64,000 nt of DNA, taken from a virus. Taxonomy: Duplodnaviria; Caudoviricetes. The stretch covers positions 1,028 through 65,027 of the IMG/VR virus record IMGVR_UViG_3300042934_000565. One strand, written 5' to 3'. Positions 8,667 to 45,637 of the stretch are shown in pieces. The notes beneath the pieces are model-generated. The model worked only from the letters and a program-made list of their open reading frames with translations. It was not told the origin of the DNA and searched no databases. Within the stretch, counting starts at the first letter, position 1, and every line of letters starts with the position of its first letter. The position numbers and the translations under genes are program-made.

Positions 8667-8668
8667 AC

Positions 8669-8935: not shown

Positions 8936-9137
8936 TTGGTAGTCCCTAGTGATGTGAGTGAGTACTTTGTATATGAGCCCTGAGGTGGCTCATCCCTACG
9001 ATCATATCGTCGAAATCTCGGGGAGGCAAATGCCTCAATCTCGGGTAAGGGCATACCGGAGTTTGATCCACTTATTCTCATGCATTATGATCGATATGCG
9101 CCCATCAATCGAGGGGCAATAACTAAAGGAGGTGCCA

Positions 9138-12572: not shown

Positions 12573-12880
12573 CGGTTTCTCTTTCTTGCTACGAGGTGAT
12601 TCTTAACCACCATCAGGGCTTCTTGGGGGGAGCAGACCACGGTCGCCAGGCCGCCTGCCTCATTGATCAACCCATGCACATAATCCTGGCGCGCTGAGGT
12701 ATTATCCCGAGTGCTGGGGAGCTTAACTTCGAGCCCGATATAGTAGCCCTCAGCGCATACGATCAGGTCAGGTAACCCCGCCATCATCATCTCGCTGCCA
12801 TGAACCTTGAAGACGAACCATCCCTCGAGCTTGAGGGCGTCCTGTATCTTGCGCTGAAGTCGGGACTCGGGCTGGGTCAT
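12569..12880 (-). CDS. VRR-NUC nuclease / Holliday junction resolvase
   Basis: ESRLQRKI...GLPDL...GLEVK...Q PD-(D/E)xK pattern. Confidence 0.9.
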   Translation of the reverse strand: MTQPESRLQRKIQDALKLEGWFVFKVHGSEMMMAGLPDLIVCAEGYYIGLEVKLPSTRDNTSARQDYVHGLINEAGGLATVVCSPQEALMVVKNHLVARKRNR

Positions 12881-15395: not shown

Positions 15396-16472
15396 CTATG
15401 CGGCCTTGTCCGCGTCATCGCCGGCGCGGTCCTGGTAGTAATCGTTGGGATCACCCTCGGTGTAGTTCAGTCGGATCATGCGCTCGACGTCACCACCCAT
15501 GATGTGGGCTACGTGAAGGTCCTCGTAGTCCTCAAAGAATCCTCGCTGCTGAGGGTCCGCCATCTCGATGGCAGCGGTGTCGTCGAAGTCATAGTTCTGC
15601 ATCCGCAGTGCCGTGCGGTAGTTCATCAGCATGACTCGGTCGAGCATCTCATCAGACTTCTCGAGGATATCGCGGCGGAAGAACTCGGAAGTCTGCATCG
15701 CCCCGTGCTGATACTGAAGCCCTCTAAGGTATTCTGCCTTGGCTCGATCCTGCGGGCGAATCTTGAACTGGGGGTTCTCTTCCTTGTACTTCTTCAACGC
15801 CCGAACGAAGGTGGGGTAGTCGGTATCGCACGCCGAGTCAGAGATGCGGTCACCCTTGACTAGCAACTTAGGTGTGGAGGCTGGCTTCCATCGTAGATAG
15901 TTCCAGATAAAGCCCTGCACCGGAAGACCATTTTCACGGGCGGCCCAGAGGTATAGAGCAGACTGACTGTCTCGGAGTCGGAACTGCAGATCGGGCAGAC
16001 TTCGATGTGTCTTGTGATCAACAAGCCATAACCCGTACTCGTTCTCAATGAGCGCATCAACCTTGCCACGGTAGAGAGTGCCATCGGGAAACTCGCATTC
16101 TAGTGTGAACTCATTGGCGACGTAAGTCCAGGGGTCATTCTTGTAGTGCCAAGAGTAGGACTCCATGATCTTGCCGATCTCAGTCGGCATGTCACCGTAG
16201 TAATCCTTCTCCTCATCGAAGAGTTGATCGAACTGGTGACTGTAGTGCTTGTGAACGCCCCGCCAGTCCTTGCCATTGCCCTGAGCTTCGAGCAGCGCAT
16301 GCACCCAAGTGCCTCGCTTGAGCGGCTTCTTGAGCATCTTGGGCTTGAGCCGACGGACGTACTTGAAGTAGGCGCACATCTCACAACGACGGAATGTCTT
16401 CAACATCGAGTGAGTGATGATTCGCTTCCCAAGCTCCTCATCGAAGTAAAGTCCCTTATGCTCGGGCGTCAT
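15396..16472 (-). CDS. Cas4/RecB-like PD-(D/E)xK exonuclease
   Basis: HSMLKTFRRC, RGTWVHALLE, GKVDAL...LVDHKT, QSALY. Confidence 0.85.
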   Translation of the reverse strand: MTPEHKGLYFDEELGKRIITHSMLKTFRRCEMCAYFKYVRRLKPKMLKKPLKRGTWVHALLEAQGNGKDWRGVHKHYSHQFDQLFDEEKDYYGDMPTEIGKIMESYSWHYKNDPWTYVANEFTLECEFPDGTLYRGKVDALIENEYGLWLVDHKTHRSLPDLQFRLRDSQSALYLWAARENGLPVQGFIWNYLRWKPASTPKLLVKGDRISDSACDTDYPTFVRALKKYKEENPQFKIRPQDRAKAEYLRGLQYQHGAMQTSEFFRRDILEKSDEMLDRVMLMNYRTALRMQNYDFDDTAAIEMADPQQRGFFEDYEDLHVAHIMGGDVERMIRLNYTEGDPNDYYQDRAGDDADKAA

Positions 16473-16494
16473 CAGCGCCTCAAGCCGCGCCAGC

Positions 16495-16725
16495 TCAGTC
16501 ACGGTCGAGCTGCTCGTACAAGTCTTTGCAAGTGGGGCAGACGGGGAACTTGGTGAAGTCCCGAGAGGGTCGCCATTTCTTTCCGCAGAGTGCGGTGATT
16601 TCCACACCATCGAAGATCGAGCGTTCGATGTCTGTTCTTCGGGCGTAGTGAGCGAAGAGGTCGTGATCGCCATCCTCGGTCACCGTAGTGACGCGAGTAT
16701 CCTCTAAAAGATCGGAGTCAGCCAT
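16495..16725 (-). CDS. DUF3039-family protein (actinobacterial host-type)
   Basis: GDHDLFAHY...ALCGKKWRPSRD...FPVCPTCKDLYE. Confidence 0.85.
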   Translation of the reverse strand: MADSDLLEDTRVTTVTEDGDHDLFAHYARRTDIERSIFDGVEITALCGKKWRPSRDFTKFPVCPTCKDLYEQLDRD

Positions 16726-18054: not shown

Positions 18055-18408
18055 TCAACTACCAATTTGCCCCGACTTCAGGAGCTTGTACCTACGCAGC
18101 TCGGCGTTGATTTCGGCTCGCTTGCGTGGAGTCAAGAACTTCCAGATGTCGGCAAGGAACCCGCGGACCGCAGCATAACCCCCGATTTCAAAGCAGGGAT
18201 CGCCTGTCGGCGCCATGATCACATTGCCATTACCGACTGCATCGATGAGTCGATCGTTCACATCAGGATTGCCAGTGACGGCTAGGAGACCGATTGCATG
18301 ATACATGCGAGTCGGCCCCTGCTCGATCGTGACAGCGACAACTCCACACCCCTCAATGACGCCTGCTGCCCAGATGAGGGACTCTCGGTAATTCATGCTA
18401 TCCATCAT
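18055..18408 (-). CDS. Degenerate single-domain LAGLIDADG-like protein
   Basis: LIWAAGVIEGCG helix; IWKFLTPRKRAEI. Confidence 0.55.
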   Translation of the reverse strand: MMDSMNYRESLIWAAGVIEGCGVVAVTIEQGPTRMYHAIGLLAVTGNPDVNDRLIDAVGNGNVIMAPTGDPCFEIGGYAAVRGFLADIWKFLTPRKRAEINAELRRYKLLKSGQIGS

Positions 18409-18414
18409 ATCATC

Positions 18415-20943
18415 CTATGCTGCCTTAGCATACTTGTATGACTGCTCGTATGCGTAGACCTGATCGTGGTAAAGTTCTACCTTGTCACCCCAGTGCTGAC
18501 CGACTGAGACATCTGCAACGATCGGGATATCGACCACCGTACCGAATCGCTTGTAAACATGGTGCATATCTTCCATGCTGTCCTTGATTATCGGCAGCAC
18601 TCGTGCGACGTAGTCGTCTCGAATCTCGAAGTTGATAGCGTCGTGCACCAAGCCAAGGCAGTGAGCGAACTGATCCCACCCGAGCTCACGAAGCTTTCGG
18701 TTAATCTCGATCATGGCGATGACTGCCAGGTCACTACCGAAGCCCTGTACCGGAGAGTTGATCGCCTGTCGCTCGGCTTCAGCGCGTACCCCCTGATCAG
18801 GCGAATAGATGTCGGGCAGATGACGAATGCGACCCAGGGGCGATACCACCCGGCCATATTTGTTGACCAGGCGTCGCTGCTTTGCGTGCCATGCGGGCAA
18901 CTTGGGGTAGAGGTCGAAGTATGCGATACGGGCTGCCTGAGCTTCCATCTCGGTGAAGATCGAGCCATAGCTACTGAAGGCAGTCTCGATGAACTTGCGC
19001 CAGCCCATGCCATAGAGGAAGCCGAAGTTAACCGGCTTACCGACTACCTTTCGAATCTCCTTGGTCACCTGAGATTCAGGCAGCCCAGTGACTCGAGCGG
19101 CAGTCATCAAGTGGATGTCGCCACCAGTAGCATAGATATGCTTCATCGTGGTTTCATCCGCCATGAATGCGGCGATCCTCAGCTCGATCTGGCTATAGTC
19201 AGCCTCCACGAATGTCCAGCCAGGCGGCGCCCCGAATAGACCCCGAATGAATGGATCTCTTGGTACCTGTTGAAGATTGACACCTCGCATCTTACCCCGA
19301 GAACCGGAGATCTTGTCTTCATCCGCTTTGCCAGAACTAAGACGTCCCGTAACGGTTCCTGCGAGTTTGAAGTTCGTGTGAATTCTATGGTTATCATCGT
19401 AGAGCTCCGAGTATGGGTTGAAGAACGAGCTGAGGTGCTTCTGCTTCGTAACTCTATCAAGCATACCCTGGAGGGCTTCATGCTTATACTCTGACTGAAG
19501 ATGCTTGATTACATCCTCTGCCATGCTCGGGTCACCAGGCGAGCCATCCTGCTTTACCTTGCCCCGTTCGAGCACTGGCATCTCGAGCCATTCGAACAGC
19601 ATCCATCGTGCGAACTTAGAGGCATTGAAGTTAACGGGTAGCGGCTTGCCCCTGGCATCGGTGGGCCATACATCCGCAGGCACCTTGTCAAGCTCGGCGG
19701 CAGCATATATGCGGGCCTCGACATCTGCCAGGTTCTGCTCGGCAATCGGCTTGCGTTCCTTCAGTCGCTTGACATCGATCCATGCCCCGCGTATCTCAGA
19801 GTCGATCAGGTCACGCTGTGCCGGCATCGTCTCGAACTTGAAAATACGGGCAAGTCGGGGTTCGGCCTTGAACTCCTCGACCAACTGTTGCTTCACCCAG
19901 TACATGTACCAGGTGTCGAGAACATTGTAGTGAAGAACTTCTTTGATCGGGTAGTTCAGCAGGTTGCCCGTGTCGATACCCCATGCCTCAACACCGAGGC
20001 GCGCCATCGCCTGAGGCTTGAGCCCTTTCTGCACGTTCTCATTGAGCAGGGCGATGGCGAGCATCGTATCGAAGGATGGATAAAGCTTAATCCCGCACCA
20101 GATCAACCACTTGCAATCGAAGGAGGCGTTGTGAGCAACCACCTTACGGATGCGCTTAACATGCCGGCCAATAAGGTCCAGGATATACTGCCAGCGACTA
20201 CGCCAAGGGGACTGGGGATGATATAGAGGTACAGCAAAGACAGTGCGACCCATGCTCCCGTCAGGCTTGCGTATAACGCAAGTAGCAGCAAGACTAACCA
20301 TTCTCGCCTCAGGCTCATAGTACTCACCGCCGTTCGTTTCGATGTCGATGTAGATTTCATCCGTCATCTCGAGGATGCGGAATACTTTCTTCAGTGTTTC
20401 CTTGGTATCCGCAATAAGATACTTGGGCTGAGGAAACTTGTTGTCGCGTTCGAGCACGCGGTTAGCGAATAGTCGGAGATCAGCAATGTATCCGGGGAGC
20501 TGCCCAGGGTTGCGATTGATAGCACTGGGAGAGAGGGTAGACATGACGTCAGAACCAAGGGCTTCGAAAAACTTGCCCCTATACTTGGTGATGCCTGACT
20601 TACCCACAACGGCTTGCAGAGCCTCATTTCCCAAACAAAGGATGTGCTTCCGCTTTCGGGTTTGTATCTCCGGGATGAGATACTTAGCCGCATGTTCCTT
20701 GAGCTGCCGTGTAGTAAGTGATGTATCGAACTCCCGGCACTTAATAACGGGGGTAAAGAGGATCTTCGATACGTCGAGCCCGAGTTCCTTGAGCTGGAGA
20801 TCGAGAGCATCTTGAAATCGTCCCGAGCTCTTTCTGTTAGTAACAACCACGACTTCAGCATCGAGAGGTCCCACTGAGAAGGATGATTGGTCATGGTTGC
20901 CACATACCTCGCAGATGTCGGGCAGGGTTGAAAGCTCAAGCAC
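18415..20943 (-). CDS. polA: Family A DNA polymerase with N-terminal UDG-like domain and 3'-5' exonuclease
   Basis: Exonuclease DIET, HNASFD, YNVLD; polymerase TGRLSS, ADYSQIELR, KPVNFGFLYG, VHD; probable leaderless GTG at 20943. Confidence 0.95.
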   Translation of the reverse strand: MLELSTLPDICEVCGNHDQSSFSVGPLDAEVVVVTNRKSSGRFQDALDLQLKELGLDVSKILFTPVIKCREFDTSLTTRQLKEHAAKYLIPEIQTRKRKHILCLGNEALQAVVGKSGITKYRGKFFEALGSDVMSTLSPSAINRNPGQLPGYIADLRLFANRVLERDNKFPQPKYLIADTKETLKKVFRILEMTDEIYIDIETNGGEYYEPEARMVSLAATCVIRKPDGSMGRTVFAVPLYHPQSPWRSRWQYILDLIGRHVKRIRKVVAHNASFDCKWLIWCGIKLYPSFDTMLAIALLNENVQKGLKPQAMARLGVEAWGIDTGNLLNYPIKEVLHYNVLDTWYMYWVKQQLVEEFKAEPRLARIFKFETMPAQRDLIDSEIRGAWIDVKRLKERKPIAEQNLADVEARIYAAAELDKVPADVWPTDARGKPLPVNFNASKFARWMLFEWLEMPVLERGKVKQDGSPGDPSMAEDVIKHLQSEYKHEALQGMLDRVTKQKHLSSFFNPYSELYDDNHRIHTNFKLAGTVTGRLSSGKADEDKISGSRGKMRGVNLQQVPRDPFIRGLFGAPPGWTFVEADYSQIELRIAAFMADETTMKHIYATGGDIHLMTAARVTGLPESQVTKEIRKVVGKPVNFGFLYGMGWRKFIETAFSSYGSIFTEMEAQAARIAYFDLYPKLPAWHAKQRRLVNKYGRVVSPLGRIRHLPDIYSPDQGVRAEAERQAINSPVQGFGSDLAVIAMIEINRKLRELGWDQFAHCLGLVHDAINFEIRDDYVARVLPIIKDSMEDMHHVYKRFGTVVDIPIVADVSVGQHWGDKVELYHDQVYAYEQSYKYAKAA

Positions 20944-20949
20944 GATTGT

Positions 20950-20979
20950 ATTATACCACCTTCGAACTCGAGAGGTCAA
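20950..20979 (-). promoter_or_regulatory. SigA-type promoter for the polymerase (leaderless)
   Basis: TTGACC N18 TATAAT, 7 nt before the GTG. Confidence 0.75.
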
Positions 20980-21379
20980 TTACCTCAATCCCCTGTGCGC
21001 GGAGTAATTCCACACCAGCGGTCAGGCGGTAGGGTACCTTAAATCGTAGAGATCCGATACCCACGTTAAGCAACGAGCGTGCACAGTCAAGGCAGGGCGC
21101 ATGGGTGCAGTAGGCATCACTGTCACCAAGCCTGATACCTTCTCGGGCTGCGTAGGCGATGGCGTTTCGCTCGGCGTGTTCGACGATCTTACATCCCTCT
21201 GTTTCGTCGGGGAGGTGTACGCAATGGGCCATACCACGAGGAGCACCATTATAGCCAGTAGCGAGGATACGACCATCGCGAGCAAAGACCACCCCCACCT
21301 GGGCACGCGAGCAAGTGCCGCGACGGGCGACAACCTCAGCGACCTCCATGAGCATCTGTTCACGGCTGATCCTTTCCAT
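20951..21379 (-). CDS. dCMP deaminase
   Basis: TCSRAQVG, TGYNG, HAERNA, PCLDC. Confidence 0.95.
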   Translation of the reverse strand: MERISREQMLMEVAEVVARRGTCSRAQVGVVFARDGRILATGYNGAPRGMAHCVHLPDETEGCKIVEHAERNAIAYAAREGIRLGDSDAYCTHAPCLDCARSLLNVGIGSLRFKVPYRLTAGVELLRAQGIEVIDLSSSKVV

Positions 21380-21502
21380 CACTTGGCCCAGGTCTTTCCG
21401 CAGCTGCACCTATACAGCTCGCCTCGAGCGGACATATCGAACATCGGAACAGAGACCCTCGTCATCGTAACGAAGTGCCGCCACTTGTGCCACCAAAGCA
21501 TA

Positions 21503-22378
21503 TCAGTACCAAAGCTTTCCCTGGGAGTTCCAGTATTTGATCATCTCGACGTCCTGGTCGAAGATGTGCATGTTTGCGGTGTGGAAGATCAGTTTGCCGA
21601 CCTCGAGCGGATACTGCTGAGGCTCGTTGTACTTGTATTCCCAGAGTCGATTGACTTCCCCTACTACCCACTGGGCAAGTCGAACGGCGAGGTAGACATC
21701 GTCCTGAAAGTGTCTGAGAAGATCGGTCGAGCGCATGAAGTAGCTGATGTCGAGCACACCATCGCGGATGATGAAGTGATACCCGAGGGTGCAAGGGACC
21801 CGCTTGCCGTGGACTGCTCCGGTATCCTCCGGGAACCAGATGGGGAGGTATGCCTGCCGAGTCAGCGGTGACTTGAACAGTTGGTTCACAACATCGCGCA
21901 GATCGCCATAGTCGAAACGGATACCCCGCATCTCACCATTTGTGAAAAGGGATCGATTGTATCCCTGGATTTGGCCCGCATTCTTCGGCCACATGCGTTC
22001 GGGGTAGGTGTGACTGAATGCCTCACCCTCACTCTTGTGAGCGACGTTCGTGCCCTCTTTCTTGGCGGCGAACGGCCACCAGGCCTCGCTCGGGCTCGGA
22101 TTGAGGGGCTCGCCACCTACGCGCTCAAGGAAATGATCCTCGGCCCAAGGCAAACGAGCCCCCGTCTCACGAGCCAGTTCTTCCTTCGTCTGCGGCATCT
22201 GCCACTGGAAGACGACATGAAGCAACTCTCGCATCTTGGCATCTGTTGATTGACTTTGCCACTCCCCCAAGTCCACCGCTGGCTGCTCCAATAATTTCCG
22301 CTCCAACATTTCGAATAGTACCCGAAAGGTGAGGGGCAGGTTCGTGTTGAGATTGTCGAACTGCGAAGCGATGATCAT
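21503..22378 (-). CDS. Thymidylate synthase-family enzyme, dCMP (hydroxy)methylase-like
   Basis: TRQAYLPIW, catalytic VPC, MRSTDLLRHFQDD, NMHIF. Confidence 0.85.
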   Translation of the reverse strand: MIIASQFDNLNTNLPLTFRVLFEMLERKLLEQPAVDLGEWQSQSTDAKMRELLHVVFQWQMPQTKEELARETGARLPWAEDHFLERVGGEPLNPSPSEAWWPFAAKKEGTNVAHKSEGEAFSHTYPERMWPKNAGQIQGYNRSLFTNGEMRGIRFDYGDLRDVVNQLFKSPLTRQAYLPIWFPEDTGAVHGKRVPCTLGYHFIIRDGVLDISYFMRSTDLLRHFQDDVYLAVRLAQWVVGEVNRLWEYKYNEPQQYPLEVGKLIFHTANMHIFDQDVEMIKYWNSQGKLWY

Positions 22379-22450
22379 GGAAGTAGTCCCTTAGGTCTCT
22401 GAGTCGTCTCTAATGATGCCGAGATATCGTCATGCGGTAGTTAGATCATA

Positions 22451-23482
22451 TCACTCATCGTCATCCTCGTCATCGTCGCCCCCTCCGACGAATGGATCTC
22501 CATACCTACGGTTGATCGGCATCCCGATTCGTTCGAAGTCCAGCTCATCGACATGCACCGAGGGCAGCGGCTTGTATGCGGTGAAGAACTCCTTCTCCTC
22601 ACCCTTGAGTGGGCCGCGCTTGTAGTACTCCCAACCTTCGAACTGCTGAGCGTACTCGTAGCCATGCACCTCGGTATGGTACCGGCGAATGACTCGGCGG
22701 AAGGTGTTATAGGTCAGCGCCCCGTAAGTGCGACCTGCCTCATCTTCAGCGACCACCTTCTGGAACCACTTCCTCGATCCTCGGATCGCCGGGTGGTCGA
22801 TGATCAAACGCTTATGTTCTCTATCCAGCTCAGACGAGGGAGCCAGGATGAGTTTACGGAACAGCTGCGACCGCTCATCGTCAGGGCTGGTAAGCACATA
22901 GCTCACCGACTTGAAGAAGTGCCACTGCGTTGCCTCGTTGATCCAGACGAAGCGCAGCTTCTTCACATCGATCCCGAGTTCCTGAGCCAGGTACTTGCCG
23001 ATCACATATGCGACCGAAAGGTCGAGCCCCGCGATGTACCCCATGTAAGAGGTGCGGCTGTGCAGAGTCAGCGTCGGGTAGGGCTTGGCCTTGTAGCTGA
23101 AGCTCAGCATGCACGCGCCCCAGATACGAGTCTGCTTGTTCTGATGCCCGGTTGCCTCACCACCGCGAGGCTTGACGGTCTTGGTACGCATGACTGCGAT
23201 GCCGCGTTCCTTCAGACCGATACGTGAGGTGATCCGACCGATCCAGGTCTCGAGGTCCTGCGGATCGATGTACTGACGAATGAGCATCGACCATCGCTGC
23301 TTGGTCAGCCACGAAGTCTTGAGGTCGAAGTCCCACTCCATCGAGTCGCACTCGGCGATCACCATGTGCTCGGATACATCCACCGAACTGATGAGGTCGA
23401 GGCTATCGGGAGTACCGAAGAGCAGTCCATCCACGAGAGCATCGTGAAGCTGCGTCATGGTGTGGGTGTGGTAATGCTTCAT
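22451..23482 (-). CDS. Highly divergent second thymidylate synthase-fold protein
   Basis: WGACMLSFSY...LTLHSRTSYMGYIAGLD...QWH matches the spacing of the TS PC / RSxD..N / HxY motifs. Confidence 0.55.
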   Translation of the reverse strand: MKHYHTHTMTQLHDALVDGLLFGTPDSLDLISSVDVSEHMVIAECDSMEWDFDLKTSWLTKQRWSMLIRQYIDPQDLETWIGRITSRIGLKERGIAVMRTKTVKPRGGEATGHQNKQTRIWGACMLSFSYKAKPYPTLTLHSRTSYMGYIAGLDLSVAYVIGKYLAQELGIDVKKLRFVWINEATQWHFFKSVSYVLTSPDDERSQLFRKLILAPSSELDREHKRLIIDHPAIRGSRKWFQKVVAEDEAGRTYGALTYNTFRRVIRRYHTEVHGYEYAQQFEGWEYYKRGPLKGEEKEFFTAYKPLPSVHVDELDFERIGMPINRRYGDPFVGGGDDDEDDDE

Positions 23483-24072
23483 GCCTGCACCGCCTTGTAG
23501 AGACCGTCGGTCACTGAGCAGTGGAAGAACCGAGTACCCTCGGCTGACATGGGGTACGAGCGAAGCAGATTCTCGTGCTCCTCACCCTCGTACATGTAGC
23601 AGAAGACAGCGGCATCGTCGAGGGCCCGCTTACAGCCAGGGCACTTGGTGCTGACCCCGTCGTAACCCTCCTCCTGTCGCTTCTCGTTCTTCTTGTGCTT
23701 GTTGTCGTAGGCGAGCTTGACCGATTCTGCATCCATGCCCAGCCCCAGGAAGATGTTGAGCAGGAAGTGCAGAGCATCGATGGCCTCACCCTGTGCGGCC
23801 TCGAGATTGATGTGCCGGGACTTGGCCCAGGGCTTCCACCCGATTTCGCCCAGCAGCTCATGCAGCTCGTCGGTCAGGGCGGTGACGTTCCAGTGAAGGA
23901 AATCGATCAGCGGCTTGCGATCTTCATCGGTGTTCTCGTAGTTGCCCTCCTCATCAAGAAGCGCGAACTCGGGAGAGTCGAAGGCGTTGAGGAAGAGATT
24001 AATCGGGTGCGGCGATGGCATCTTCCCCTGAAGCTCGCTCTGCTGATCGAGGAAGTACTGGAGGGTGGTCAT
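23479..24072 (-). CDS. All-alpha NTP pyrophosphatase (dimeric dUTPase/dCTPase, MazG superfamily) with Cys-rich C-terminus
   Basis: DELHELL..WKPW, EAIDALHF, YDNKHKKNEKRQEEGY. Confidence 0.9.
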   Translation of the reverse strand: MTTLQYFLDQQSELQGKMPSPHPINLFLNAFDSPEFALLDEEGNYENTDEDRKPLIDFLHWNVTALTDELHELLGEIGWKPWAKSRHINLEAAQGEAIDALHFLLNIFLGLGMDAESVKLAYDNKHKKNEKRQEEGYDGVSTKCPGCKRALDDAAVFCYMYEGEEHENLLRSYPMSAEGTRFFHCSVTDGLYKAVQA

Positions 24073-24611
24073 AGGAAAGCCCTTTCCTGAGCTCGGTTGA
24101 GTGGGAGGTAAAGAGGACCGAGAGGGTCTCGATCGCTCCAGACAGTGTAGTCATAGACGACAGCGCCGGCATGAATCACGTCGAGGGAGGCCCGCTGAAG
24201 GTATGCCGTGTACAGCTGTTCGACATGATCCCACACCGCGCGATTCGTTTCGTCGCCCGCGATGTTCATCTTCACTACGCTGAGCGGTGGCAGGCAGTAG
24301 ATGATGATCGGCTTTAGCTGGTAGAATCGACGAAGCGAACCATGTACCCAAGCTGGAGAAGTGAAGCCCGCTCGTTGCTCCTTGCGGAGTACGGGGCCGT
24401 AGATGAACTCGCTGATGAGTCGGTATCGATCAAAGAGGGTGTACTGGAATCCCTCAGCAAGATTCTGATCGACCCACTGCTGAAGATCGACCAGGTCGTT
24501 CGTCTCTTTGCTCACCACTCGAGGAGCGACCGTCAGATCGGGGTAAGCGTCGAGGATGTTCTTGATCAGGGTTGTCTTGCCCGAGCCGTCAGGGCCTTCG
24601 ACGATGATCAT
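24069..24611 (-). CDS. dNMP/thymidylate kinase-like protein
   Basis: IIVEGPDGSGKTT, FDRYRLISEFIYG. Confidence 0.9.
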   Translation of the reverse strand: MIIVEGPDGSGKTTLIKNILDAYPDLTVAPRVVSKETNDLVDLQQWVDQNLAEGFQYTLFDRYRLISEFIYGPVLRKEQRAGFTSPAWVHGSLRRFYQLKPIIIYCLPPLSVVKMNIAGDETNRAVWDHVEQLYTAYLQRASLDVIHAGAVVYDYTVWSDRDPLGPLYLPLNRAQERAFL

Positions 24612-24760
24612 CCGTTCGTCTGAAGGTAAGAGATGTTCTTCTCGGGGTCACGGATGATGTCGACGATCTCGACGTCCGTGCCCTGAGGAGTGATGACCTT
24701 GATGAAGTCATCGCCAGAGGTCTTATCCCCGATCATCTCGTACAGATCGCGAGCTCTCAT
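24608..24760 (-). CDS. Small hypothetical protein (50 aa, not in the ORF track)
   Basis: ATGA overlaps at both ends; MRARDLYEMIG... Confidence 0.6.
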   Translation of the reverse strand: MRARDLYEMIGDKTSGDDFIKVITPQGTDVEIVDIIRDPEKNISYLQTNG

Positions 24761-24963
24761 TCTACTACCCTTTCGTATCCGGAACCCTTGAGGTCCTTGA
24801 CGTCGATGATGGCGGGGATACCGCTATCGGTGGTGACTCGAGCTTGCCACTCCTGAGTCATGGTTTTGGGTGAGATGAACTCCGTCACGGTGAGGATGAC
24901 GCTTCCATCTTCGGACTTGAATCGGGCACCGAGCGGTACCCCGTAAACCTTATTGGCTGGCAT
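24757..24963 (-). CDS. Hypothetical protein, leaderless first gene of the nucleotide operon
   Basis: ATG 7 nt from the -10 box. Confidence 0.7.
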   Translation of the reverse strand: MPANKVYGVPLGARFKSEDGSVILTVTEFISPKTMTQEWQARVTTDSGIPAIIDVKDLKGSGYERVVE

Positions 24964-24969
24964 ATATAG

Positions 24970-24998
24970 AGTATACCATTCTCGAATCTTCGAGTCAA
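24970..24998 (-). promoter_or_regulatory. SigA-type promoter of the nucleotide-metabolism operon
   Basis: TTGACT N17 TATACT. Confidence 0.8.
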
Positions 24999-26614
24999 TG
25001 AACCGTATTCTTGAACAGGTCCAGAGCCGCGTGCATCTTATCTGCGTTATCCAGGGATTGACCGATACGAAGCAGACGCTCGGGTGACTGAATCATTTTC
25101 TTACCGATGTCACTATCCTCGAGCAGGGTTGTGTATCGTTCCTCATCGACGGTGCCACGTGCGAGATAGAACTCATGGAAGGTGGGCTTCTGGCTCAGGG
25201 CGATTCGGTCGGAGAATTGCTTGAAGTTGACCCATGAGGATGGGAGGCTGTACCATTGCAGAATGCTAGCCGCGGATAGATCGATAGCCTCTCCAGCAGC
25301 GGCTGGCTGACCGATGAAGATGGCGCCTCCAGACACCTTGGCAAATTGCTTGGGGATCGGTGCGCGGTCGGCCTGCTTGACACCACCGTGGATAGCGAAT
25401 GTAGGTACACCGAGCTTCTTACCCAGTTTAATGAGGCGAGCGATGTCAGCCTTAAAGAGAGCACCTATGACTACCTTCTCGTCAGCTTCCATAAGATCTT
25501 CGAGACGATCCTGTATAACCCTGAGCTTCTCCGATCCGATGGCCACCAGCCTTCCCTTGGGATGAAGCTTTGTCGGTGCCGTCTTGGCAAACCCCGATGT
25601 GATCTGCTGAAGCCGGAGAATTTGTACCAGCTTGATCGAAGCCTCAGTGATCTCGCCCGTGCGGATTCTCGCGACCATATCCTCCGCCATCTCATCGTAT
25701 GCCTTGGCAGACTCTTCGAGTTCGATAGGGATGATTTGAGGAGTGGACTTGGGGAGGTCATAACATTCTTCTCGGGTAATGCTGAAGCTGTCTAGATGGA
25801 CGAGGTCATGCAACTGCTTGGTATTACGAGGCCCGATGAACTTGGCGTAGTTTTCTTTCTGAAGCCAACGGCCATACTCCGCCTTGAACTCAGCGAAGTT
25901 CATTGCCTCACCATTGTCATCGACGAAACGGTGGGGGTTTACGAATCGCCACTGAGCATAGATGTCGAAGAGGCGCTTGCTCTTAGTCACCGGAGTACCA
26001 GTGAGAATCATGCGCTTGGCATCAGGGGATCGATCGGCAATGGAAAGAAGCGCCGTTGTCTTCTTAGCAGAGGGGGACTTGATACGGTGGCTCTCATCGA
26101 GGATGATCATCTGAGGCTGCCACTTTAGCACCATGTCCTTCATGGCATATCGCCCACCAGCTCTGGTGGATCGACGATGGACACCTTCCCTGTCGAGCAT
26201 GGGCTGACCCTTATTGGGTCCGCGTTTGTAGTACATCAGCTCGCCCGGTGTGGAGAAGGCATCATAGTTGACGATCACGATGTCGAGGATGTTCTTGCCA
26301 TAGTTAGGCATCGCGCCGTTCTTACGACCATCCTTGTCCATGATGACGAGGCGGTATGGTACGGGGCAATTCTCTTCGAGCTGCTCCTTCCACACCTGAA
26401 TGGCGACGACGGGCCCGACCACGAGAACACGATTAACTTCCTCGAACTCGTGCAGAATTGACGCCACATCTACGGCGACCTTGGTCTTGCCCGTTCGAGG
26501 GTCCATCAACAGAGCGAAGCCCTGGTTGCCCTCGCGGTAATGCTTCAGAGCCGCTTTAATCGCCCGGACCTGATGGGCATACGGCTTCTTCTTGGGCTTA
26601 TAGACGCGACTCAC
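24995..26614 (-). CDS. SNF2/SF2 helicase
   Basis: PRTGKT, ILDESHRIK, LTGTP, QILRLQQI, GEAIDL. Confidence 0.92.
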   Translation of the reverse strand: MSRVYKPKKKPYAHQVRAIKAALKHYREGNQGFALLMDPRTGKTKVAVDVASILHEFEEVNRVLVVGPVVAIQVWKEQLEENCPVPYRLVIMDKDGRKNGAMPNYGKNILDIVIVNYDAFSTPGELMYYKRGPNKGQPMLDREGVHRRSTRAGGRYAMKDMVLKWQPQMIILDESHRIKSPSAKKTTALLSIADRSPDAKRMILTGTPVTKSKRLFDIYAQWRFVNPHRFVDDNGEAMNFAEFKAEYGRWLQKENYAKFIGPRNTKQLHDLVHLDSFSITREECYDLPKSTPQIIPIELEESAKAYDEMAEDMVARIRTGEITEASIKLVQILRLQQITSGFAKTAPTKLHPKGRLVAIGSEKLRVIQDRLEDLMEADEKVVIGALFKADIARLIKLGKKLGVPTFAIHGGVKQADRAPIPKQFAKVSGGAIFIGQPAAAGEAIDLSAASILQWYSLPSSWVNFKQFSDRIALSQKPTFHEFYLARGTVDEERYTTLLEDSDIGKKMIQSPERLLRIGQSLDNADKMHAALDLFKNTVH

Positions 26615-28359: not shown

Positions 28360-30261
28360 TTACGCGGCCTTGACGATCCAGTTAACTACGAGGTACGGCT
28401 GCAGGTTGTTGTGCGCGCCACCACCTCCGGTGGCCGCCGGGTCCGTCCATGTCCCAGTGGGGGCGTTGTTGTGCGGGGGGATGCCGGTACCGGTCGTGAT
28501 GCTGCCAGCTGCAGTGGTGCGAATTAACCCGTTATCATGGGTATGGCTAGGCATCTCCGCCACGGATAGCGTGTGGGTCTTCGCACCACCAGTTTCACCG
28601 AGAGCGTTGAATTCTGTCTGACCGGTATCCTTACCCACCGGGACTCTACCCTTAAGGTTGGGCAGGTTGAATGTCGTAGAACCGTCACCGCTACCAAAGG
28701 TTGTACCCCAGAGCGCATACAGAATGCTATAGGTCACTCGAGATACTGCCTGACCTTGCATCAGTAGCCAACCCATTGGAGGAGTGTCAGTCATCCACAT
28801 CTCGACAGAACCGATTGGAGCCACTGCCCCATTCCGTGAGAAGATATCACCGGCGACATCGACCATGCCATTCTCGCGGAACTTGCCGAATCCCACACCG
28901 AGCTCAGCATCCCAGTGCATGAAGATGGCAGCCACCGGAACCTGAAGAATCGTGGCGGTGGTGATGAAGTCGTCGTAGACCTCCACCTTGACCTCATAGG
29001 CAGTGGTGATGGCGTAAGGTCCGGTGAGCAAAACATTGCTGTTGAACGTGAGACCACCCGGAGTAACGGTACTCTTTACCGTCCAGGTTGAGGTACCTCG
29101 AGTTCGAGTAGACAGTCGGTAGTTAAGCGCGTTACGCTGAGTGGTATTCATCAGCGACTGCACCGCAGCGTTCAGGTCAACCCGGATGTACGTGCCATCA
29201 TCCTCGTCGACTGTGCCCCCGGAAAGCGCTCGCCGAGCCGTTGCGGTTGTGATCGTAGGAGGCACATAGTTGAGGACGGTAATGCTGACCGTCTTGGTAG
29301 TGCTTCGACCTCGAGAGTCAGTTACCTTGCCGCGAAGAGTAATGGTTCCATCAGCACTGAGGGGAAGAGAAGTGCCAGACGAAGAGTTGATGGTCTGGAG
29401 AATCGTAGAACCCTTGAGGATCTCGATCTTGTAGGAGGTGATGGTTGACCCATAGTAACCTGCCGCACCAGTAATGGCGAGAGCCAACTTGCTGATGGTT
29501 TCAACATAAGCCCCGACATTCGAGGCAACGCCAGTGGTAGCTTCAGAATGGGTGATCGTTGTGAAGTCCGGAACTGCCGTAGACAGCGCTCCGATAACGA
29601 TGCCAACATCACTGTGACCAATAGAACTGCCATTGACGATGGTGTGGGTTCTGATGAATCCCGAACCCGAGGCAGAGTTGGGGAACTGGTTCAAGAGGGT
29701 CAGCGGAACGGCCCAGGTGGTCGAAGCCCCGACGCCGTTGGCAATGGTGCCAGATGCATTGCCGAAGAAGTATTCGATGTTATGAGTGAAGCTTGTGCTA
29801 GCGCGGTTGGTCACGATGGTGATTGTCTCACCAGCGTTGAAGATGTTATCGCCGTCAGCCGTAGGGACGGATGCTCGGGGGATTGTAGTCAGACCCATGG
29901 AGCCCGAGCATGATGCACTACCAATTAGAGTGCCACCACCAGCGGATGCCGAGAAGTTGATGTTCAGGCTACCATCGGCGTTGTGAGTTACGTTGATAGC
30001 GGGGTTAGCGCTATAGAGAACCAAAACGTCATAGTTTCGGAAGTCATAGGTTGTACTGCCCGAGGCCGTCTGACCATGTACATTCCAGGACCAGGTCAAG
30101 GCAGCAGACAGCGAGTACGACCCATTGCTCGAGGTCTCATTGATCCTGAGGTCTACCTGCAGAGCAGAGTAGTTACTACCTATGTTCTGTGAGTGCTGAT
30201 TGACCGTATGAACCAGCGAGTACTGAGACCGACCGCTGAATGCATCTGAAGCACTAGCCAA
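28360..30261 (-). CDS. Minor tail/fibre protein (DUF859-like N-terminus, tail-collar domain C-terminus)
   Basis: LTTIPRAS...SFTH; GWLLMQGQAVSRVTY...GDGSTTFNLPNLKGRVPVG; HNNLQPY. Confidence 0.85.
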   Translation of the reverse strand: MASASDAFSGRSQYSLVHTVNQHSQNIGSNYSALQVDLRINETSSNGSYSLSAALTWSWNVHGQTASGSTTYDFRNYDVLVLYSANPAINVTHNADGSLNINFSASAGGGTLIGSASCSGSMGLTTIPRASVPTADGDNIFNAGETITIVTNRASTSFTHNIEYFFGNASGTIANGVGASTTWAVPLTLLNQFPNSASGSGFIRTHTIVNGSSIGHSDVGIVIGALSTAVPDFTTITHSEATTGVASNVGAYVETISKLALAITGAAGYYGSTITSYKIEILKGSTILQTINSSSGTSLPLSADGTITLRGKVTDSRGRSTTKTVSITVLNYVPPTITTATARRALSGGTVDEDDGTYIRVDLNAAVQSLMNTTQRNALNYRLSTRTRGTSTWTVKSTVTPGGLTFNSNVLLTGPYAITTAYEVKVEVYDDFITTATILQVPVAAIFMHWDAELGVGFGKFRENGMVDVAGDIFSRNGAVAPIGSVEMWMTDTPPMGWLLMQGQAVSRVTYSILYALWGTTFGSGDGSTTFNLPNLKGRVPVGKDTGQTEFNALGETGGAKTHTLSVAEMPSHTHDNGLIRTTAAGSITTGTGIPPHNNAPTGTWTDPAATGGGGAHNNLQPYLVVNWIVKAA

Positions 30262-33200
30262 GAGCCCTCACCACCGTTCCTGTTCCGAACTTCTCCAGCT
30301 GGTGATTACCAAGTGTAACCTTTTCCCCAACGAACTGGTTAACATACATGGTACCAGAATTCCAGTAGGAGACGACGTTCCCGTTCTCCAACATCTCGAT
30401 TCTATCACTGCGAATAGCTGTCGCAAAAACCGAGCCGGGACTAGAGATTACCGCACCTTCAGCACCGAAGGCATAGTAAGTCTGCATCTCTGTCAGGTTA
30501 TCCTGAGTTCCTTGCAGGTTAGTCTCCACACCAGCGATCGTGTCCTGGGTGGCGACGATGGTAACGTTGCCCGCGATGTTGAGCTCATCACCAACCGCAG
30601 GCGATAGGTGGTTAGTTTCAACCGCGCCCGCCTGAATGTGGTTTGCAATGATGGCATTGGCGGCAATCTTCTCTGCCGTTACTGCTTCTGCTGCGATCTT
30701 CTCGGCAATGATGGCGGCAGCCTGAATCTTCTCAGCCGATACCGAGTTAGCCTGCAAGTGTTCAGCGACGATCGAGTTCGCCGCGACCTTGTCAGCAGTA
30801 ACCGACCCTGCGACGATGTCAACCCCACTGACCATCTTCAGCAGTCGGAAGTCATCGACGAAGTATACCGAAGTGTTAGTGGTGTCAGCGATCCAAACCT
30901 GGGGCTTGAAGTAGTTGATTCCCTCAGGCACTGTCCAGCTACCCATTACCATGATGTAACCGGCAGTGATCAGCTCACCAGAACCCTCAACCTCAGTAAT
31001 GGTACCGAGAGCAGTAGTTGCTCCCGACATCACTCGGATCACGAGGCCATCATCAGGAACCGTCGTCTGAGGATCGATGTACATCCGGAAGTAGAAGGTG
31101 TCACCAGGCTGGCAGGGGAGGACTCGATTATACTGGAAACCCTCTCGAGCAACTGTTGTTGCCGGCAGGCGAAGGTGACGAGTACCAGTACGAGGCAGCG
31201 TAGTAACGTTCGTGACCCCTGAGCCCAGCGTCCAGAACTCCGAAGTGTTGAGTTCGAAGCTGGCGTCACTGAGCATGTTCGACTGTTCAGCTGCAGCCCT
31301 GGCCGCTTCCTCGGCAGCCTCAATGGCTGCTTCAATCGCCGGGTCAAGATCGCCGAGGTCAACCCCCGTAATCGTGATCGGACCCGCCGTGGCGGATACC
31401 GTCGAAAGGATGCCCGCTCCGTCAACCGCGGTGAATCGAACCCATCGCTGTGCGCCAATGGTCTCACCGGGGATGCTGATCTGACCCGCACCAGTAAGAA
31501 CGTTACCCTTACGAACCCAGGGCTGACCAGTTGCTGCGGTGGAAACCTCGGCATAAAGGTATCGGAACTGAGGCGGAGGAGTGGCACTTGCAATCTGCCC
31601 ATTCCAGGCAGCGATCAGAAGACCCAGCTCGCTTGCAAGCGTAGGTGTGGAGGGGGCCCCCATCGGAACGGTCGGACCCGCGACGGTGAAGGATACCGAG
31701 GCCGACCAGTCGGAGGGAGTAGTATCTTCGTTGATCGCTCGAACCTGGAAAACCCACTGATCGGTTGGCACCAGGGCCCGAATGGTGATGTCCGACGAGG
31801 TTACAAAGCCATAGCTTACGAAGTTCGAGCTACCGTTTCGCCAGCCCCATACCTCATAGTACGTCGGGGTAGTTGCCGTCAGGTCAGTGTTCTGGGTAAC
31901 AGGGTTCCAGTCAAGTACCACCTGACCGCTGGCCGTAACTCCATTGGGAGTCCAGTAACCGACGTTGGAAGTTACCGCAAGCCCCGTAGGGGCCATGGGC
32001 TTAAGGACTGCCGGGGTAGCAGGCGGCGGAATGACGATCGGCTGTCCCACACCAGGGGTCGAGCCGGAGACGTTTGCCAGCGAACCACCAACCCCGCCAC
32101 CACCGAGCTTCTCGATAACCCGATTGATTCGATCCTCGTTGTTTCGGAAGATCGTATCGAACTCGATGGTGTAGATGACGCGGCCAGCATCGTTCTCAGT
32201 GACGGCGATCGACATCACCCGGCGAGGGACAGGTACTCCACGATCGTTAGGGGCCAGCACCCAGTCACCAATGTTGAAGTCTACGAACGGTACATACTCA
32301 TCGAAGATAAGGTCGTAGCTGGCACCCTCTTCTTCTCGAGCTCGTTGAGCGAATACCAGGCTGGCGATTTTCCCGGCGAAAACAGCCGGAACATTCGTAT
32401 CAAGGGTTGACTCGAGGCGACCATAGATTCCTACCGAAGCCGAGTCAGAAGCTTCTACCCATCCCTCGATTGTCTTAAGCAGGAGGTCGTTCTTGATCTT
32501 CGCCTTGCTCTGAGTCGACGCAGTTCGAAGGTGCTTACCCAGTTTGAACTCGATGGGAGTAGCAGTAATCGTGCGAGTAGCGAGAGTGGTCATCGACGCG
32601 TTAGGGGTACCGGCCCAGGCAATTTGCGCCGAGGGGGTATCAGGAAGGTCACCACTGAGCGCCCCATTATCGACACTGCCAACCTCAAAGACAATGTTCT
32701 TGATAATTGCCGTAGAGTTAAGTGCCGCAGTCTGACGAAGTAAATAGACGGTGCCCCTAGCAGAGCTGTTGGTGGTGAAGGTGAACGACAGTCGCTTGGT
32801 TTGACCTACTCCTACAGAAGTATAAGGGCTATTAACATGTGTTGTAACCCAGCTTCCTTGAGCACTAAGTCGCCAGCCATCAGCAACTACCCCAATGACA
32901 TCCATACTGACGGTATAAGTTTGAACTCCGACCTGGTAATCAACATTGCCAGCCAGATTTACCCCAGAGTCTCCCACTCCCCCAGCGGTAGCCGTGACTC
33001 GAAGTCCCTTAGTAGCGGAGTCGAAAGCGATGACCGCAGAGTTAGCAACGAAGAAGTTTGCAATGTCCGTCGCCGTGTCACCCATCGGCTTCGTCATGCG
33101 GTTAGTGCGACGAACTGAGTAACTGCCACCCTGGTACTGGGTACGATCTACTCCTCGTACGGGCAGCATGTTGAGTTCGAGGGTATCAGGGTCGATCCAG

Positions 33201-34414
33201 ATGTCGACCGAAGCTTCCTCGAGCTTACTCACTACCGAGAGAAGTGACTCACCTACTGCGAAGCTCCACTCGCCGTACATCGATGTAGGCCAGGGTACTC
33301 CATTGGAGTCGAGGGTGTTAGTGAAGGTTTTGGTCAGGTAGGTAAGGGACTCTACCCCTCGAGCTACTGCCTCAGCGATGAGGTCACTCAGCACTTCACC
33401 GGGCGACCATCCCGGAGCCTCGGCCGGGTATGCAAGAACCTTCCAGCCAGAGGACTGGGACCTACCTACGAAGGATTCCTTGTCGGTACCAGTAATCTTG
33501 GCAATCGCCATGGCCAGAGCAGCCGGGCCCTCATATCCAGGGGCATTCAAGTTGTGTGCGCGGTAGGCAATCACATGACTACCTGCGGTGAGGTCGATTT
33601 CTACTCGAGTAGCTTCTCGCCAGGAGGCCGACTTCTCCGAGCTCTTGGCGATCTGCTCACCATCGACGTACAACTGGAATACATCGTCTACCGAACTGTA
33701 GATGGCATACCGACCAGATGAAGCCAGTGTGATGGTGTAGCGAAAGTATACATCCCCATAGGGCATGGTCGCACTGTAAGCGGAACCCCAGATCCACTCA
33801 GCGTTCTTGGCACCCGAGGGCCACTTGTTCGGTATCTCATAGTGGGTCTTGGAACCCACCGTGCTAAAGACGTTAGGAGCGATCCAGCTTGCCGAGTTGT
33901 ACCAGGAACCGACCTCGCTGGCGAAGTTGAAGTATCGTGTGGAACTGGATGTCTGCTTGATTCCCCCGAACGGTTCGACGCGCGCATCATCGAACAGTTG
34001 CTTCAGGCCGGGGCCTGCAGGCTTCCAAGCGATCTCTGAGCGTTCTCCCGCCCCGACGATGATCGATTCTTTATCACCGATCAGGAAGGCGCCTACAGGC
34101 GTTCCGTCGACAAGGAGCTTGCACATATTGCGACCCTTGAGAAGGAGAGGATCCTTCACGATCTTAGGGTCACTACGGGAAATGGCGAAAGAACCGCCAC
34201 CCACTGCCTTCATCTCAGCGAGAGCGGTGGGAGCCTTACGGAAAGGCAGGATGCCATAGGGCGTGGTGTAATCGTCGTACTTGTAGATCTGAAGCTGGAT
34301 GCCAGTGCTGTTTGATACTACCGGCAGGGGTTCGGGATCGGTTCCCTCTTCAGAGACACCAAAGACTCCGCCTCCCACACCATAAACGCTGGAACCCGAA
34401 CCTCCATAAGTCAT
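30254..34414 (-). CDS. Large tail-tip/central fibre protein (PA14/CBM-like, FN3, beta-repeat)
   Basis: 1386 aa downstream of Dit; VDDVFQLYVDG; PMAPTGL FN3; repeated xAEKIxA units. Confidence 0.85.
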   Translation of the reverse strand: MTYGGSGSSVYGVGGGVFGVSEEGTDPEPLPVVSNSTGIQLQIYKYDDYTTPYGILPFRKAPTALAEMKAVGGGSFAISRSDPKIVKDPLLLKGRNMCKLLVDGTPVGAFLIGDKESIIVGAGERSEIAWKPAGPGLKQLFDDARVEPFGGIKQTSSSTRYFNFASEVGSWYNSASWIAPNVFSTVGSKTHYEIPNKWPSGAKNAEWIWGSAYSATMPYGDVYFRYTITLASSGRYAIYSSVDDVFQLYVDGEQIAKSSEKSASWREATRVEIDLTAGSHVIAYRAHNLNAPGYEGPAALAMAIAKITGTDKESFVGRSQSSGWKVLAYPAEAPGWSPGEVLSDLIAEAVARGVESLTYLTKTFTNTLDSNGVPWPTSMYGEWSFAVGESLLSVVSKLEEASVDIWIDPDTLELNMLPVRGVDRTQYQGGSYSVRRTNRMTKPMGDTATDIANFFVANSAVIAFDSATKGLRVTATAGGVGDSGVNLAGNVDYQVGVQTYTVSMDVIGVVADGWRLSAQGSWVTTHVNSPYTSVGVGQTKRLSFTFTTNSSARGTVYLLRQTAALNSTAIIKNIVFEVGSVDNGALSGDLPDTPSAQIAWAGTPNASMTTLATRTITATPIEFKLGKHLRTASTQSKAKIKNDLLLKTIEGWVEASDSASVGIYGRLESTLDTNVPAVFAGKIASLVFAQRAREEEGASYDLIFDEYVPFVDFNIGDWVLAPNDRGVPVPRRVMSIAVTENDAGRVIYTIEFDTIFRNNEDRINRVIEKLGGGGVGGSLANVSGSTPGVGQPIVIPPPATPAVLKPMAPTGLAVTSNVGYWTPNGVTASGQVVLDWNPVTQNTDLTATTPTYYEVWGWRNGSSNFVSYGFVTSSDITIRALVPTDQWVFQVRAINEDTTPSDWSASVSFTVAGPTVPMGAPSTPTLASELGLLIAAWNGQIASATPPPQFRYLYAEVSTAATGQPWVRKGNVLTGAGQISIPGETIGAQRWVRFTAVDGAGILSTVSATAGPITITGVDLGDLDPAIEAAIEAAEEAARAAAEQSNMLSDASFELNTSEFWTLGSGVTNVTTLPRTGTRHLRLPATTVAREGFQYNRVLPCQPGDTFYFRMYIDPQTTVPDDGLVIRVMSGATTALGTITEVEGSGELITAGYIMVMGSWTVPEGINYFKPQVWIADTTNTSVYFVDDFRLLKMVSGVDIVAGSVTADKVAANSIVAEHLQANSVSAEKIQAAAIIAEKIAAEAVTAEKIAANAIIANHIQAGAVETNHLSPAVGDELNIAGNVTIVATQDTIAGVETNLQGTQDNLTEMQTYYAFGAEGAVISSPGSVFATAIRSDRIEMLENGNVVSYWNSGTMYVNQFVGEKVTLGNHQLEKFGTGTVVRALG

Positions 34415-44431: not shown

Positions 44432-44437
44432 AATCGG

Positions 44438-45622: not shown

Positions 45623-45637
45623 GTTCCTGTTCCTTTC

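Follow-up and report, generated by a model that had tools for sequence, protein, structure and literature searches.

In this study, we analysed a 64,000-nucleotide stretch of phage DNA (the window), which comprises positions 1028-65027 of the 65,027-bp virus record IMGVR_UViG_3300042934_000565. We found that a pyrimidine-nucleotide cassette on its minus strand encodes two proteins of the thymidylate synthase (TS) fold, one with an Asp of the deoxycytidylate (dCMP) type and the other with its probable equivalent. Gene 1 encodes a divergent TS-family enzyme, and gene 2, which precedes it, encodes a protein whose TS fold was recognised from its predicted structure. The cassette genes are arranged in the order 68-aa open reading frame (ORF), 50-aa ORF, deoxynucleoside monophosphate (dNMP) kinase, dUTPase-like hydrolase, gene 2, gene 1, dCMP-family deaminase, and DNA polymerase I (PolA) (Table 1). 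A preliminary description of this stretch had proposed the cassette as a candidate cytosine-modification pathway, and the coordinates, motifs, gene order, and promoter-like site (24970-24998) that it gave were recovered when they were re-derived from the sequence. The T4/Xp12-like logic of the cassette is known in print. A strictly linked TS-fold paralogue, detectable by structure only, with the cytosine-type Asp and without the folate-contacting Asp is undescribed as far as we found in the literature.

Two TS-fold proteins with a probable cytosine-type Asp

Gene 1 matched the Pfam TS family PF00303 with 26.9 bits against a cut-off of 24.3, and the match covered only profile positions 109-173 of 266. 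A phmmer search was performed against the Protein Data Bank (PDB). The best match of gene 1 was 1njc, by its title the N229D mutant of L. casei TS, followed by MilA as a near-best match (E 6.9e-5). The segment RSTDLLRHFQDD of gene 1 aligned with RSADIFLGVPFD of 1njc and also with RANDAFRGAVSD of MilA. Since the second Asp of FQDD faces an Asp in both alignments, D227 of gene 1 occupies the N229/N177 site of TS. In the gene 1 family, C196, R216, S217, D219, and D227 were invariant (29/29 members), and D227 was also kept in the homologues of phages Muddy and Serbin. The other diagnostic sites of gene 1 are occupied by R193 (L143 site), T197 (H147 site), and D219 (D169 site). A canonical ThyA is recognised by Asn177 and His147; gene 1 has D227 and T197 instead, and the ThyA of Microbacterium phage Triscuit in the same alignment has Asn and His. 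By its aligned residues, gene 1 is a carrier of the cytosine-type switch.

The AlphaFold model of gene 1 was aligned with human TS (4jef) at Z 16.1, with a root-mean-square deviation (rmsd) of 3.4 over 204 residues. As modelled, gene 1 clearly has a TS fold with the P-C nucleophile and the R-S-x-D motif. The fold search did not separate the TS subfamilies, scoring Z 14.7 for the dCMP hydroxylase AfhB beside the Z 16.1 of human TS.

A change of specificity to dCMP in the TS of L. casei and E. coli, brought about by Asp at the 177 site, is cited in PMC13326640 and PMC8670742, and in MetaGPA the TS homologues of modified and unmodified contigs differ most at positions 177 and 147 (eLife 2021 PMC8670742). 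Two finer signatures have been published (NAR 2026 PMC13326640, main text). In the T4-type hydroxymethylase, N177D is accompanied by an acidic L143-site residue, and the 5hodCMP synthase (AfhB/RB69 gp48), which carries out flavin-dependent hydroxylation of dCMP, is marked by D169N. The L143 rule is loose, as the Xp12 methylase has Asn at this site in our alignment.

The closest cultured relatives of the phage are Microbacterium phages Triscuit and Huwbert and Curtobacterium phage Shrew, with ~70% DNA identity across the region. Triscuit gp67 (positions 8281-9078 of locus L001) is a canonical ThyA (FNIASY) that lies directly after the Asp-type homologue of gene 1, and the same arrangement is annotated in Huwbert. 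The two annotated 'thymidylate synthases' of Triscuit are, by sequence, different enzymes. Gene 1 is probably not the thymidylate (dTMP) synthase of the phage, because Triscuit has this Asn-type ThyA beside its gene 1 homologue and because the complete 65,027-bp genome of the phage has a single PF00303 match, which is gene 1, and no match to ThyX or DHFR; a canonical or second TS is thus absent from it.

Gene 2 had no Pfam family at E <= 1, and no TS was among its PDB matches by phmmer or by the family profile. An AlphaFold model from a 73-sequence alignment was obtained with pLDDT 94.9 and pTM 0.92. In a Foldseek search with this model, all 44 rows listed of the 142 at E <= 0.001 were TS-family entries. 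Alignment by VIA-align gave Z 15.2 and rmsd 3.4 over 184 residues with AfhB (phage HY126 dCMP hydroxylase, 9iqu), Z 14.3 with MilA (5b6e), and Z ~11.5 with L. casei TS. In the structure search, 396 of 1000 chains had Z >= 8, and the TS alignments spanned residues 7-333. These results confirm, for the predicted structure, the TS fold that the preliminary description had proposed for gene 2.

Gene 2 contains RTSYMGYIAGLD. Its family was examined in 78 members, among them the distant forms of the Serratia and Pseudomonas phages; Y71, G122, C124, and R143 were invariant, and R63, S142, D154, and W180 were conserved in at least 96% (D154 in 96%). In the model, C124 is followed by strand 125-131, R143 is part of strand 137-146, and D154 falls in the first turn of helix 151-169. 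C196, R216, and D227 are placed alike in the gene 1 model. The Cys-Arg and Arg-Asp spacings are 19 and 11 residues in gene 2 and 20 and 11 residues in gene 1. From this matching spacing and the secondary-structure places, C124, R143, and D154 were equated with C146, R166, and N177 of TS. On this equivalence, gene 2 would have D at the 177 site, M at the 147 site, and Trp121 at the L143 site. Y146 would stand in place of the folate-contacting Asp169, and Glu is found there in the Serratia (Serbin) and Pseudomonas (PMBT14) forms. The dCMP-type Asp and the catalytic-type Cys in both genes, as well as the loss of the RSxD Asp from gene 2, agree with the preliminary description, for gene 2 on the basis of this probable equivalence.

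Two known activities were considered for gene 2. A T4-type hydroxymethylase was rejected on account of Trp121, which is not acidic, at the L143 site, and a 5hodCMP synthase of the AfhB/RB69 gp48 type was rejected for want of the D169N signature (Tyr, or Glu in the Serbin and PMBT14 forms).

The gene 2 protein also has a helical insertion of ~75 residues at about residues 205-280, and its C-terminus (22451-22490, minus strand) is an acidic tail, GGGDDDEDDDE. The tail reads GGDEEEDDDE in Triscuit and is absent in Muddy gp47. Acidic tails of this sort often mediate protein contacts in phage replication complexes. For the gene 2 family, 406 proteins were recovered from a word index, and an exhaustive search gave 191 clusters at 50% identity. 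A single-protein search of IMG/VR with gene 2 gave 5 loci. The ESM Atlas search returned only viral 'hypothetical' clusters and one cluster with PF00303 on 67% of its members (score 0.94). No gene 2 fusion was found among proteins of 602-2000 aa, in a weak search.

Linkage of the two genes and comparison with known systems

A tblastn search gave 85 phage records for gene 2 and 114 for gene 1. The counts were identical for both genes in phages of Gordonia (68), Mycobacterium (9), Streptomyces (4), Microbacterium (2), and Curtobacterium (1); the 85th gene 2 record is of Mycobacteroides and recurs among the matches of the gene 1 family. Gene 1 was also present in Serratia, Pseudomonas, Brevundimonas, Yersinia and, more distantly, Clostridium phages. 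We then compared 12 loci from carriers infecting Microbacterium, Curtobacterium, Streptomyces, Gordonia, Mycobacterium (Muddy), Serratia, and Pseudomonas. All 12 had the kinase first, followed by gene 2 (or another protein at its position), gene 1, the deaminase, and PolA, and in 10 of them every one of these genes was detected by tblastn. The kinase was present in 12/12 loci. A dUTPase-type hydrolase lies between the kinase and gene 2 in 8/12 loci by tblastn and in PotPie, Serbin, and PMBT14 by annotation, and none was detected there in locus L006. Thus the co-occurrence of the pair in related phages, which the preliminary description had named as a check, was observed both in the identical actinophage counts and in the gene order.

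In Serbin and PMBT14, the slot of gene 2 is filled by a 'hypothetical' protein of 262-269 aa with a weak match to the gene 2 profile (hhalign E 5e-4 and 2.5e-3). These proteins align with gene 2, weakly, at the Cys, Arg, and Asp motifs, and the PMBT14 protein is a structural match too (BFVD rank 4, E 3e-8). The stop of gene 2 and the start of gene 1 overlap in 4/8 annotated loci, and a 72-nt gap or a small ORF lies between the two genes in the window, Triscuit, and Shrew. As an indirect indication of linkage, 20 pairs of gene 2 and gene 1 homologues had an equal size of the longest source sequence. Muddy gp45 (positions 7667-8209 of locus L002), annotated as hypothetical, is a deaminase with 51% identity to the dCMP deaminase of the window (E 3e-35) and with HAE and PCxxC motifs.

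The T4 pathway uses gp56 as dCTPase/dUTPase, gp42 as dCMP hydroxymethylase, gp1 as dNMP kinase, and cd as deaminase, as is also given in the main text of PMC13326640. The cassette has the same four enzyme roles and, like T4, a TS-fold enzyme with Asp at the N177 site. It differs from T4 in three ways: the acidic residue at the L143 site is missing from both genes (Arg in gene 1, Trp in gene 2), the phage has no glycosyltransferase, and there are two TS-fold genes where T4 has gp42 and the canonical td, a canonical ThyA being found only in Triscuit.

A closer parallel is the system described from a metavirome and from Xp12/PaMx74 (MT664984), in which an Asp177 TS is grouped with a deaminase, PRA-PH/MazG, and PolA. 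In the metavirome preprint (bioRxiv 10.1101/2024.12.05.627091, main text), 104 of 149 deaminase genes on modified-cytosine contigs lay within 3 kb of a TS gene versus 17 of 277 on unmodified contigs, and 85.1% of those 104 TS genes were of the cytosine type. The co-located domains were TS, PRA-PH, and DNA_pol_A with its exonuclease, which is the layout of the cassette studied here. Five of the 7 such TS homologues that were assayed made 5-methyl-dCMP (5mdCMP). In the window, too, the Asp-type TS is directly 5' of the dCMP-family deaminase, an all-alpha pyrophosphohydrolase is nearby, and PolA with an exonuclease adjoins; as in that system, the deaminase could feed dT from modified dC. The deaminases of Xp12 and of the window share 29% identity over 84 residues. 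The second TS-fold gene is a further difference, being unmentioned in the covered main text of the preprint. The T4-like layout noted in the preliminary description is real and conserved in 12/12 loci, but it is not new, since it has been published on cytosine-modified metavirome contigs.

AfhB/RB69 gp48 (9iqu, 9iqc) resembles gene 2 in its minimal TS core and is the best structural match of gene 2. The Cys nucleophile, the Asp at the N177 site, and the loss of Asp169 would, on the probable equivalence of residues, also be common to them. It differs in having D169N, in its 11% sequence identity with gene 2, and in lacking the helical insertion; arabinosyl- and glycosyl-transferases are absent from the genome of the phage. 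MilA (5jnh, 5b6d, 5b6e) is the second-best structural match of gene 2 and the near-best PDB sequence match of gene 1, and it has Asp at the N177 site. It differs in its ribonucleotide (CMP) substrate and its part in antibiotic synthesis, and it is bacterial and outside any replication module. MilA has Asp at the L143 site (PMC13326640, main text).

The second TS-fold gene was not mentioned in the covered main-text passages of 10.1101/2024.12.05.627091, PMC8670742, PMC13326640, or PMC10353413. In the literature found on Muddy, actinophages, Serratia and Pseudomonas carriers, dCMP methylases, and AfhB, apart from subscription-only papers, there was nothing on gene 2.

Cassette layout and source genome

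Consecutive genes from the 68-aa ORF through gene 2 have 4-nt stop/start overlaps, and gene 1 is bordered by gaps of 72 nt on the gene 2 side and 93 nt on the deaminase side. The region contained 11 promoter-like sites versus 5.4 +/- 2.6 in shuffled sequences. One of these heads the cassette. The second, at the end of the deaminase gene and just 5' of PolA, is the best of the region, and PolA may also be transcribed separately from it. The preliminary description had one promoter heading one operon; the promoter-like site and the gene order agree with this, but the strong site at 20979-20950 makes the single-promoter layout plausible rather than exclusive. From their family matches, the kinase would phosphorylate a modified or ordinary pyrimidine dNMP, and the hydrolase would act as a dUTPase and/or dCTPase. 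Every Pfam match of the kinase was under its cut-off.

PolA, which would draw on the dNTP pool, contains a domain of the uracil-DNA glycosylase (UDG) superfamily (PF03167, E 2e-9). What we take to be its family-4 catalytic motifs look replaced by eye, and the domain may be a non-catalytic DNA-binding module. Since the alignments with PolA homologues begin at residues 13-23, its true start is probably 3' of the TTG at 20979. A 117-aa ORF without assignment lies directly 3' of PolA (18055-18408, minus strand).

Table 1. Features of the window (positions are those of the 64,000-nt stretch; (-), minus strand)
Feature	Position	Strand	Basis or remark
Primase-helicase	6612-8666		PHROG/Pfam scans
Small HNH-type endonuclease	12569-12880	(-)	phrog_93, E 6e-20
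Cas4-like nuclease	15396-16673		PHROG/Pfam scans
DNA polymerase I, 3'-5' exonuclease and N-terminal UDG-like domain	18415..20979	(-)	PF00476, PF01612, PF03167
Second promoter-like site, TTGACC-18-TATAAT, TG-extended	20950-20979	(-)	11/12 positions
Zinc-dependent dCMP-family deaminase, HAE and PCxxC motifs	20951..21409	(-)	PF00383 E 2e-19; phrog_174 E 5e-45
Gene 1, 291 aa, divergent TS-family enzyme	21503..22378	(-)	PF00303 26.9 bits; phrog_160 'thymidylate synthase'
Gene 2, 343 aa, cryptic TS-fold protein	22451..23482	(-)	phrog_13667 'unknown function', E 5e-123
All-alpha dimeric-dUTPase/MazG-type dNTP pyrophosphohydrolase	23479..24072	(-)	PF08761 E 5e-12; phrog_18650 E 2e-62
P-loop dNMP kinase, thymidylate-kinase-like	24069..24611	(-)	phrog_761 'thymidylate kinase', E 4e-16
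50-aa ORF	24608..24760	(-)	No family in Pfam/PHROG; stop overlaps kinase start by 4 nt
68-aa ORF	24757..24963	(-)	No family in Pfam/PHROG; first gene 3' of the promoter-like site
Sigma-70-like promoter site, TTGACT-17-TATACT, TG-extended	24970..24998	(-)	Consensus match only, 10/12 positions
SNF2-family helicase, upstream of the cassette	24995..26614	(-)	Pfam/PHROG; in the conserved replication module, 10/12 loci by tblastn
Tail proteins	28360-34414		PHROG/Pfam scans
Tape measure	37116-40232		PHROG/Pfam scans
Portal	46832-48424		PHROG/Pfam scans
Terminase	48421-49830		PHROG/Pfam scans
Endolysin	51591-53369		PHROG/Pfam scans

The 65,027-bp record has direct terminal repeats and is rated 100% complete by CheckV. 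A near-identical sequence was found in 7 listed sequencing runs, all of them soil metagenomes with no RNA run among them, and the GC content is ~56%. Genome annotation was performed with a PHROG scan of 64 ORFs and a Pfam scan of 43 ORFs, and a siphovirus gene set was recognised. These scans revealed no glycosyltransferase, in agreement with the preliminary description, and no methyltransferase. No major capsid gene was recognised either. The longest ORF between the scaffold and head-tail genes (44414-46105, plus strand) is antisense to its neighbours and has no family match; it may be the shadow of the true capsid gene on the minus strand.

Palindromes were examined across the whole 64 kb. 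The lowest 4-mer was TGCA, with an observed/expected ratio of 0.69, so avoidance is slight, and 2 of the 64 six-base palindromes were absent (TAATTA and TTTAAA, both AT-only). Such weak avoidance is unusual for a restriction-exposed phage, yet it is not diagnostic and is too slight to serve as evidence of protection.

Possible functions of the cassette

From the folds, the conserved residues, and the conserved gene order, we infer a scheme of substrates, product, DNA incorporation, and contact between gene 1 and gene 2. The explanation that we favour, at about even odds, is a pre-replicative pyrimidine-nucleotide module of T4/Xp12 logic in which gene 2 is a second active enzyme, serving a further step or as an obligate partner. 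In such a module, dCTP and/or dUTP would be hydrolysed to the monophosphate by the all-alpha enzyme. Asp227 would have shifted gene 1, a TS homologue of the folate type, to cytosine, and gene 1 would place a one-carbon group onto C5 of dCMP to give 5-methyl- or 5-hydroxymethyl-dCMP. The phage kinase and the NDP kinase of the host would raise the product to the triphosphate, and PolA would incorporate it into phage DNA. The deaminase would divert some of the cytosine nucleotides, modified or not, towards thymidine nucleotides. The TS-fold protein of gene 2 would likewise be catalytically active, with a 4-amino-pyrimidine nucleotide as its substrate and no canonical use of folate; it would act on the product or the substrate of gene 1 or serve as its obligate partner.

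Several observations weigh against this modification scheme. On the side of gene 1, the AlphaFold model was mediocre (pLDDT 69.7), and values fell below 50 in the Cys loop and in residues 90-158. The Xp12 methylase, which shares 23% identity with gene 1, is of a different TS subfamily, and at E <= 1e-6 no Xanthomonas record was among the matches listed for the subfamily of gene 1, a listing that leaves out six organisms and 55 rows. The Asp rule was set on TS subfamilies other than that of gene 1, and the finer published signatures (L143, D169N) are unmatched by it. A T4-type dCMP hydroxymethylase was rejected for gene 1 on account of Arg193, neither acidic nor hydrophobic, at the L143 site, and a 5hodCMP synthase on account of the kept D219. 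Xp12 has a DHFR adjoining its TS, whereas this phage has none. On the side of gene 2, the profile link to the gene 1 family failed (hhalign probability 0.2%). The Pfam and the PDB phmmer and profile links failed too; the TS fold of gene 2 is read from its predicted structure only, and the equivalence of its Cys, Arg, and Asp with the TS residues is suggested by motif spacing and predicted secondary structure. The literature that we found describes no enzyme assay for either subfamily, nor the nucleoside composition of a carrier phage. In the announcement of actinophage Azira, the four annotated genes are interpreted as an operon for thymine synthesis (PMC10353413, main text).

That announcement points to the main rival explanation, in which the cassette only supplies thymidylate, the virion DNA is canonical, and the kinase is a plain dTMP kinase. 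The dC of a high-GC host would be converted to dT through dCMP, 5-methyl-dCMP, and deamination or through dCMP, dUMP, and dTMP. Deaminase, TS, dUTPase, and dTMP kinase form the textbook dTMP route too, the phage, at ~56% GC, has no canonical TS or ThyX of its own, and no modified DNA was reported for any carrier phage in the literature found. In addition, the deamination of 5-methyl-dC to dT is published as the Xp12 model (10.1101/2024.12.05.627091, main text). The preliminary description had offered the conversion of 5-methyl-dCMP to dTMP as an alternative; the idea is supported by this model, but it is not novel, and the tested deaminase converts 5mdCTP to dTTP, at the triphosphate level (same source). 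In Xp12, the deamination route occurs alongside full 5-methylcytosine substitution, and an Asp-type TS with a deaminase was found overwhelmingly on modified contigs (10.1101/2024.12.05.627091, main text). A cassette that produced dTMP alone would make the canonical ThyA of Triscuit superfluous and would not account for gene 2, with its strict linkage and conserved catalytic residues. We regard an exclusive supply of thymidylate as possible but doubtful.

The active sites of TS are normally shared between the two subunits of a homodimer. Gene 1 and gene 2 could be subunits of one heteromeric TS-fold enzyme, with neither active alone, which would be compatible with the modification module; we think this unlikely. 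The identical actinophage distribution, the fixed adjacency, and the stop/start overlap in half of the annotated loci are in its favour. Gene 1 also keeps only one Arg, in a TRQ motif, at what we take to be the site of the Arg-Arg pair that TS donates across the dimer. Against this, both proteins keep the full Cys, Arg, and Asp set, which suits two separate enzymes too, and the genes are separated in the window, Triscuit, and Shrew. The support for a heteromer is solely genomic. A complex prediction for gene 1 and gene 2 gave a score of 0.00 in two runs without controls, which speaks neither for nor against contact.

It is very improbable that gene 1, for all its Asp, methylates dUMP as an ordinary TS does and that gene 2 is a non-catalytic or regulatory TS-fold relic. 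Gene 1 does keep RSxD and the P-C motif and is the only TS in the genome, but the Asp that turns the L. casei and E. coli enzymes to dCMP (cited in PMC13326640 and PMC8670742) is invariant in the gene 1 family. The Cys, Arg, and Asp of gene 2, which one would expect a relic to lose, are invariant or nearly so in 78 sequences down to ~22% identity.

Returning to the modification module, a bolder form of it is conceivable. The two TS-fold proteins, acting successively or as a heteromer, would build a cytosine derivative not yet described in DNA, and gene 2 would found a new class of non-folate chemistry in the TS fold. The base would be in the virions of this phage and of the 85 cultured actinophage records, including Muddy, with a more distant form of the system in Serratia and Pseudomonas siphophages. 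We consider this form speculative and unlikely to hold as a whole.

If the cassette modifies cytosine, dozens of cultured actinophages that are annotated as carriers of 'thymine synthesis' would have non-canonical DNA, and Muddy, which has been used in compassionate phage therapy, would be among them. The consequences would extend to how the carrier phages evade restriction and CRISPR, to their host range, and to their engineering and sequencing. Among the carriers are phages that grow readily on harmless hosts. The TS fold has recently yielded flavin-dependent dCMP hydroxylation and useful enzymes (5mC-selective deaminases), and gene 2 would add to this fold an unrecognised family of 191 clusters.

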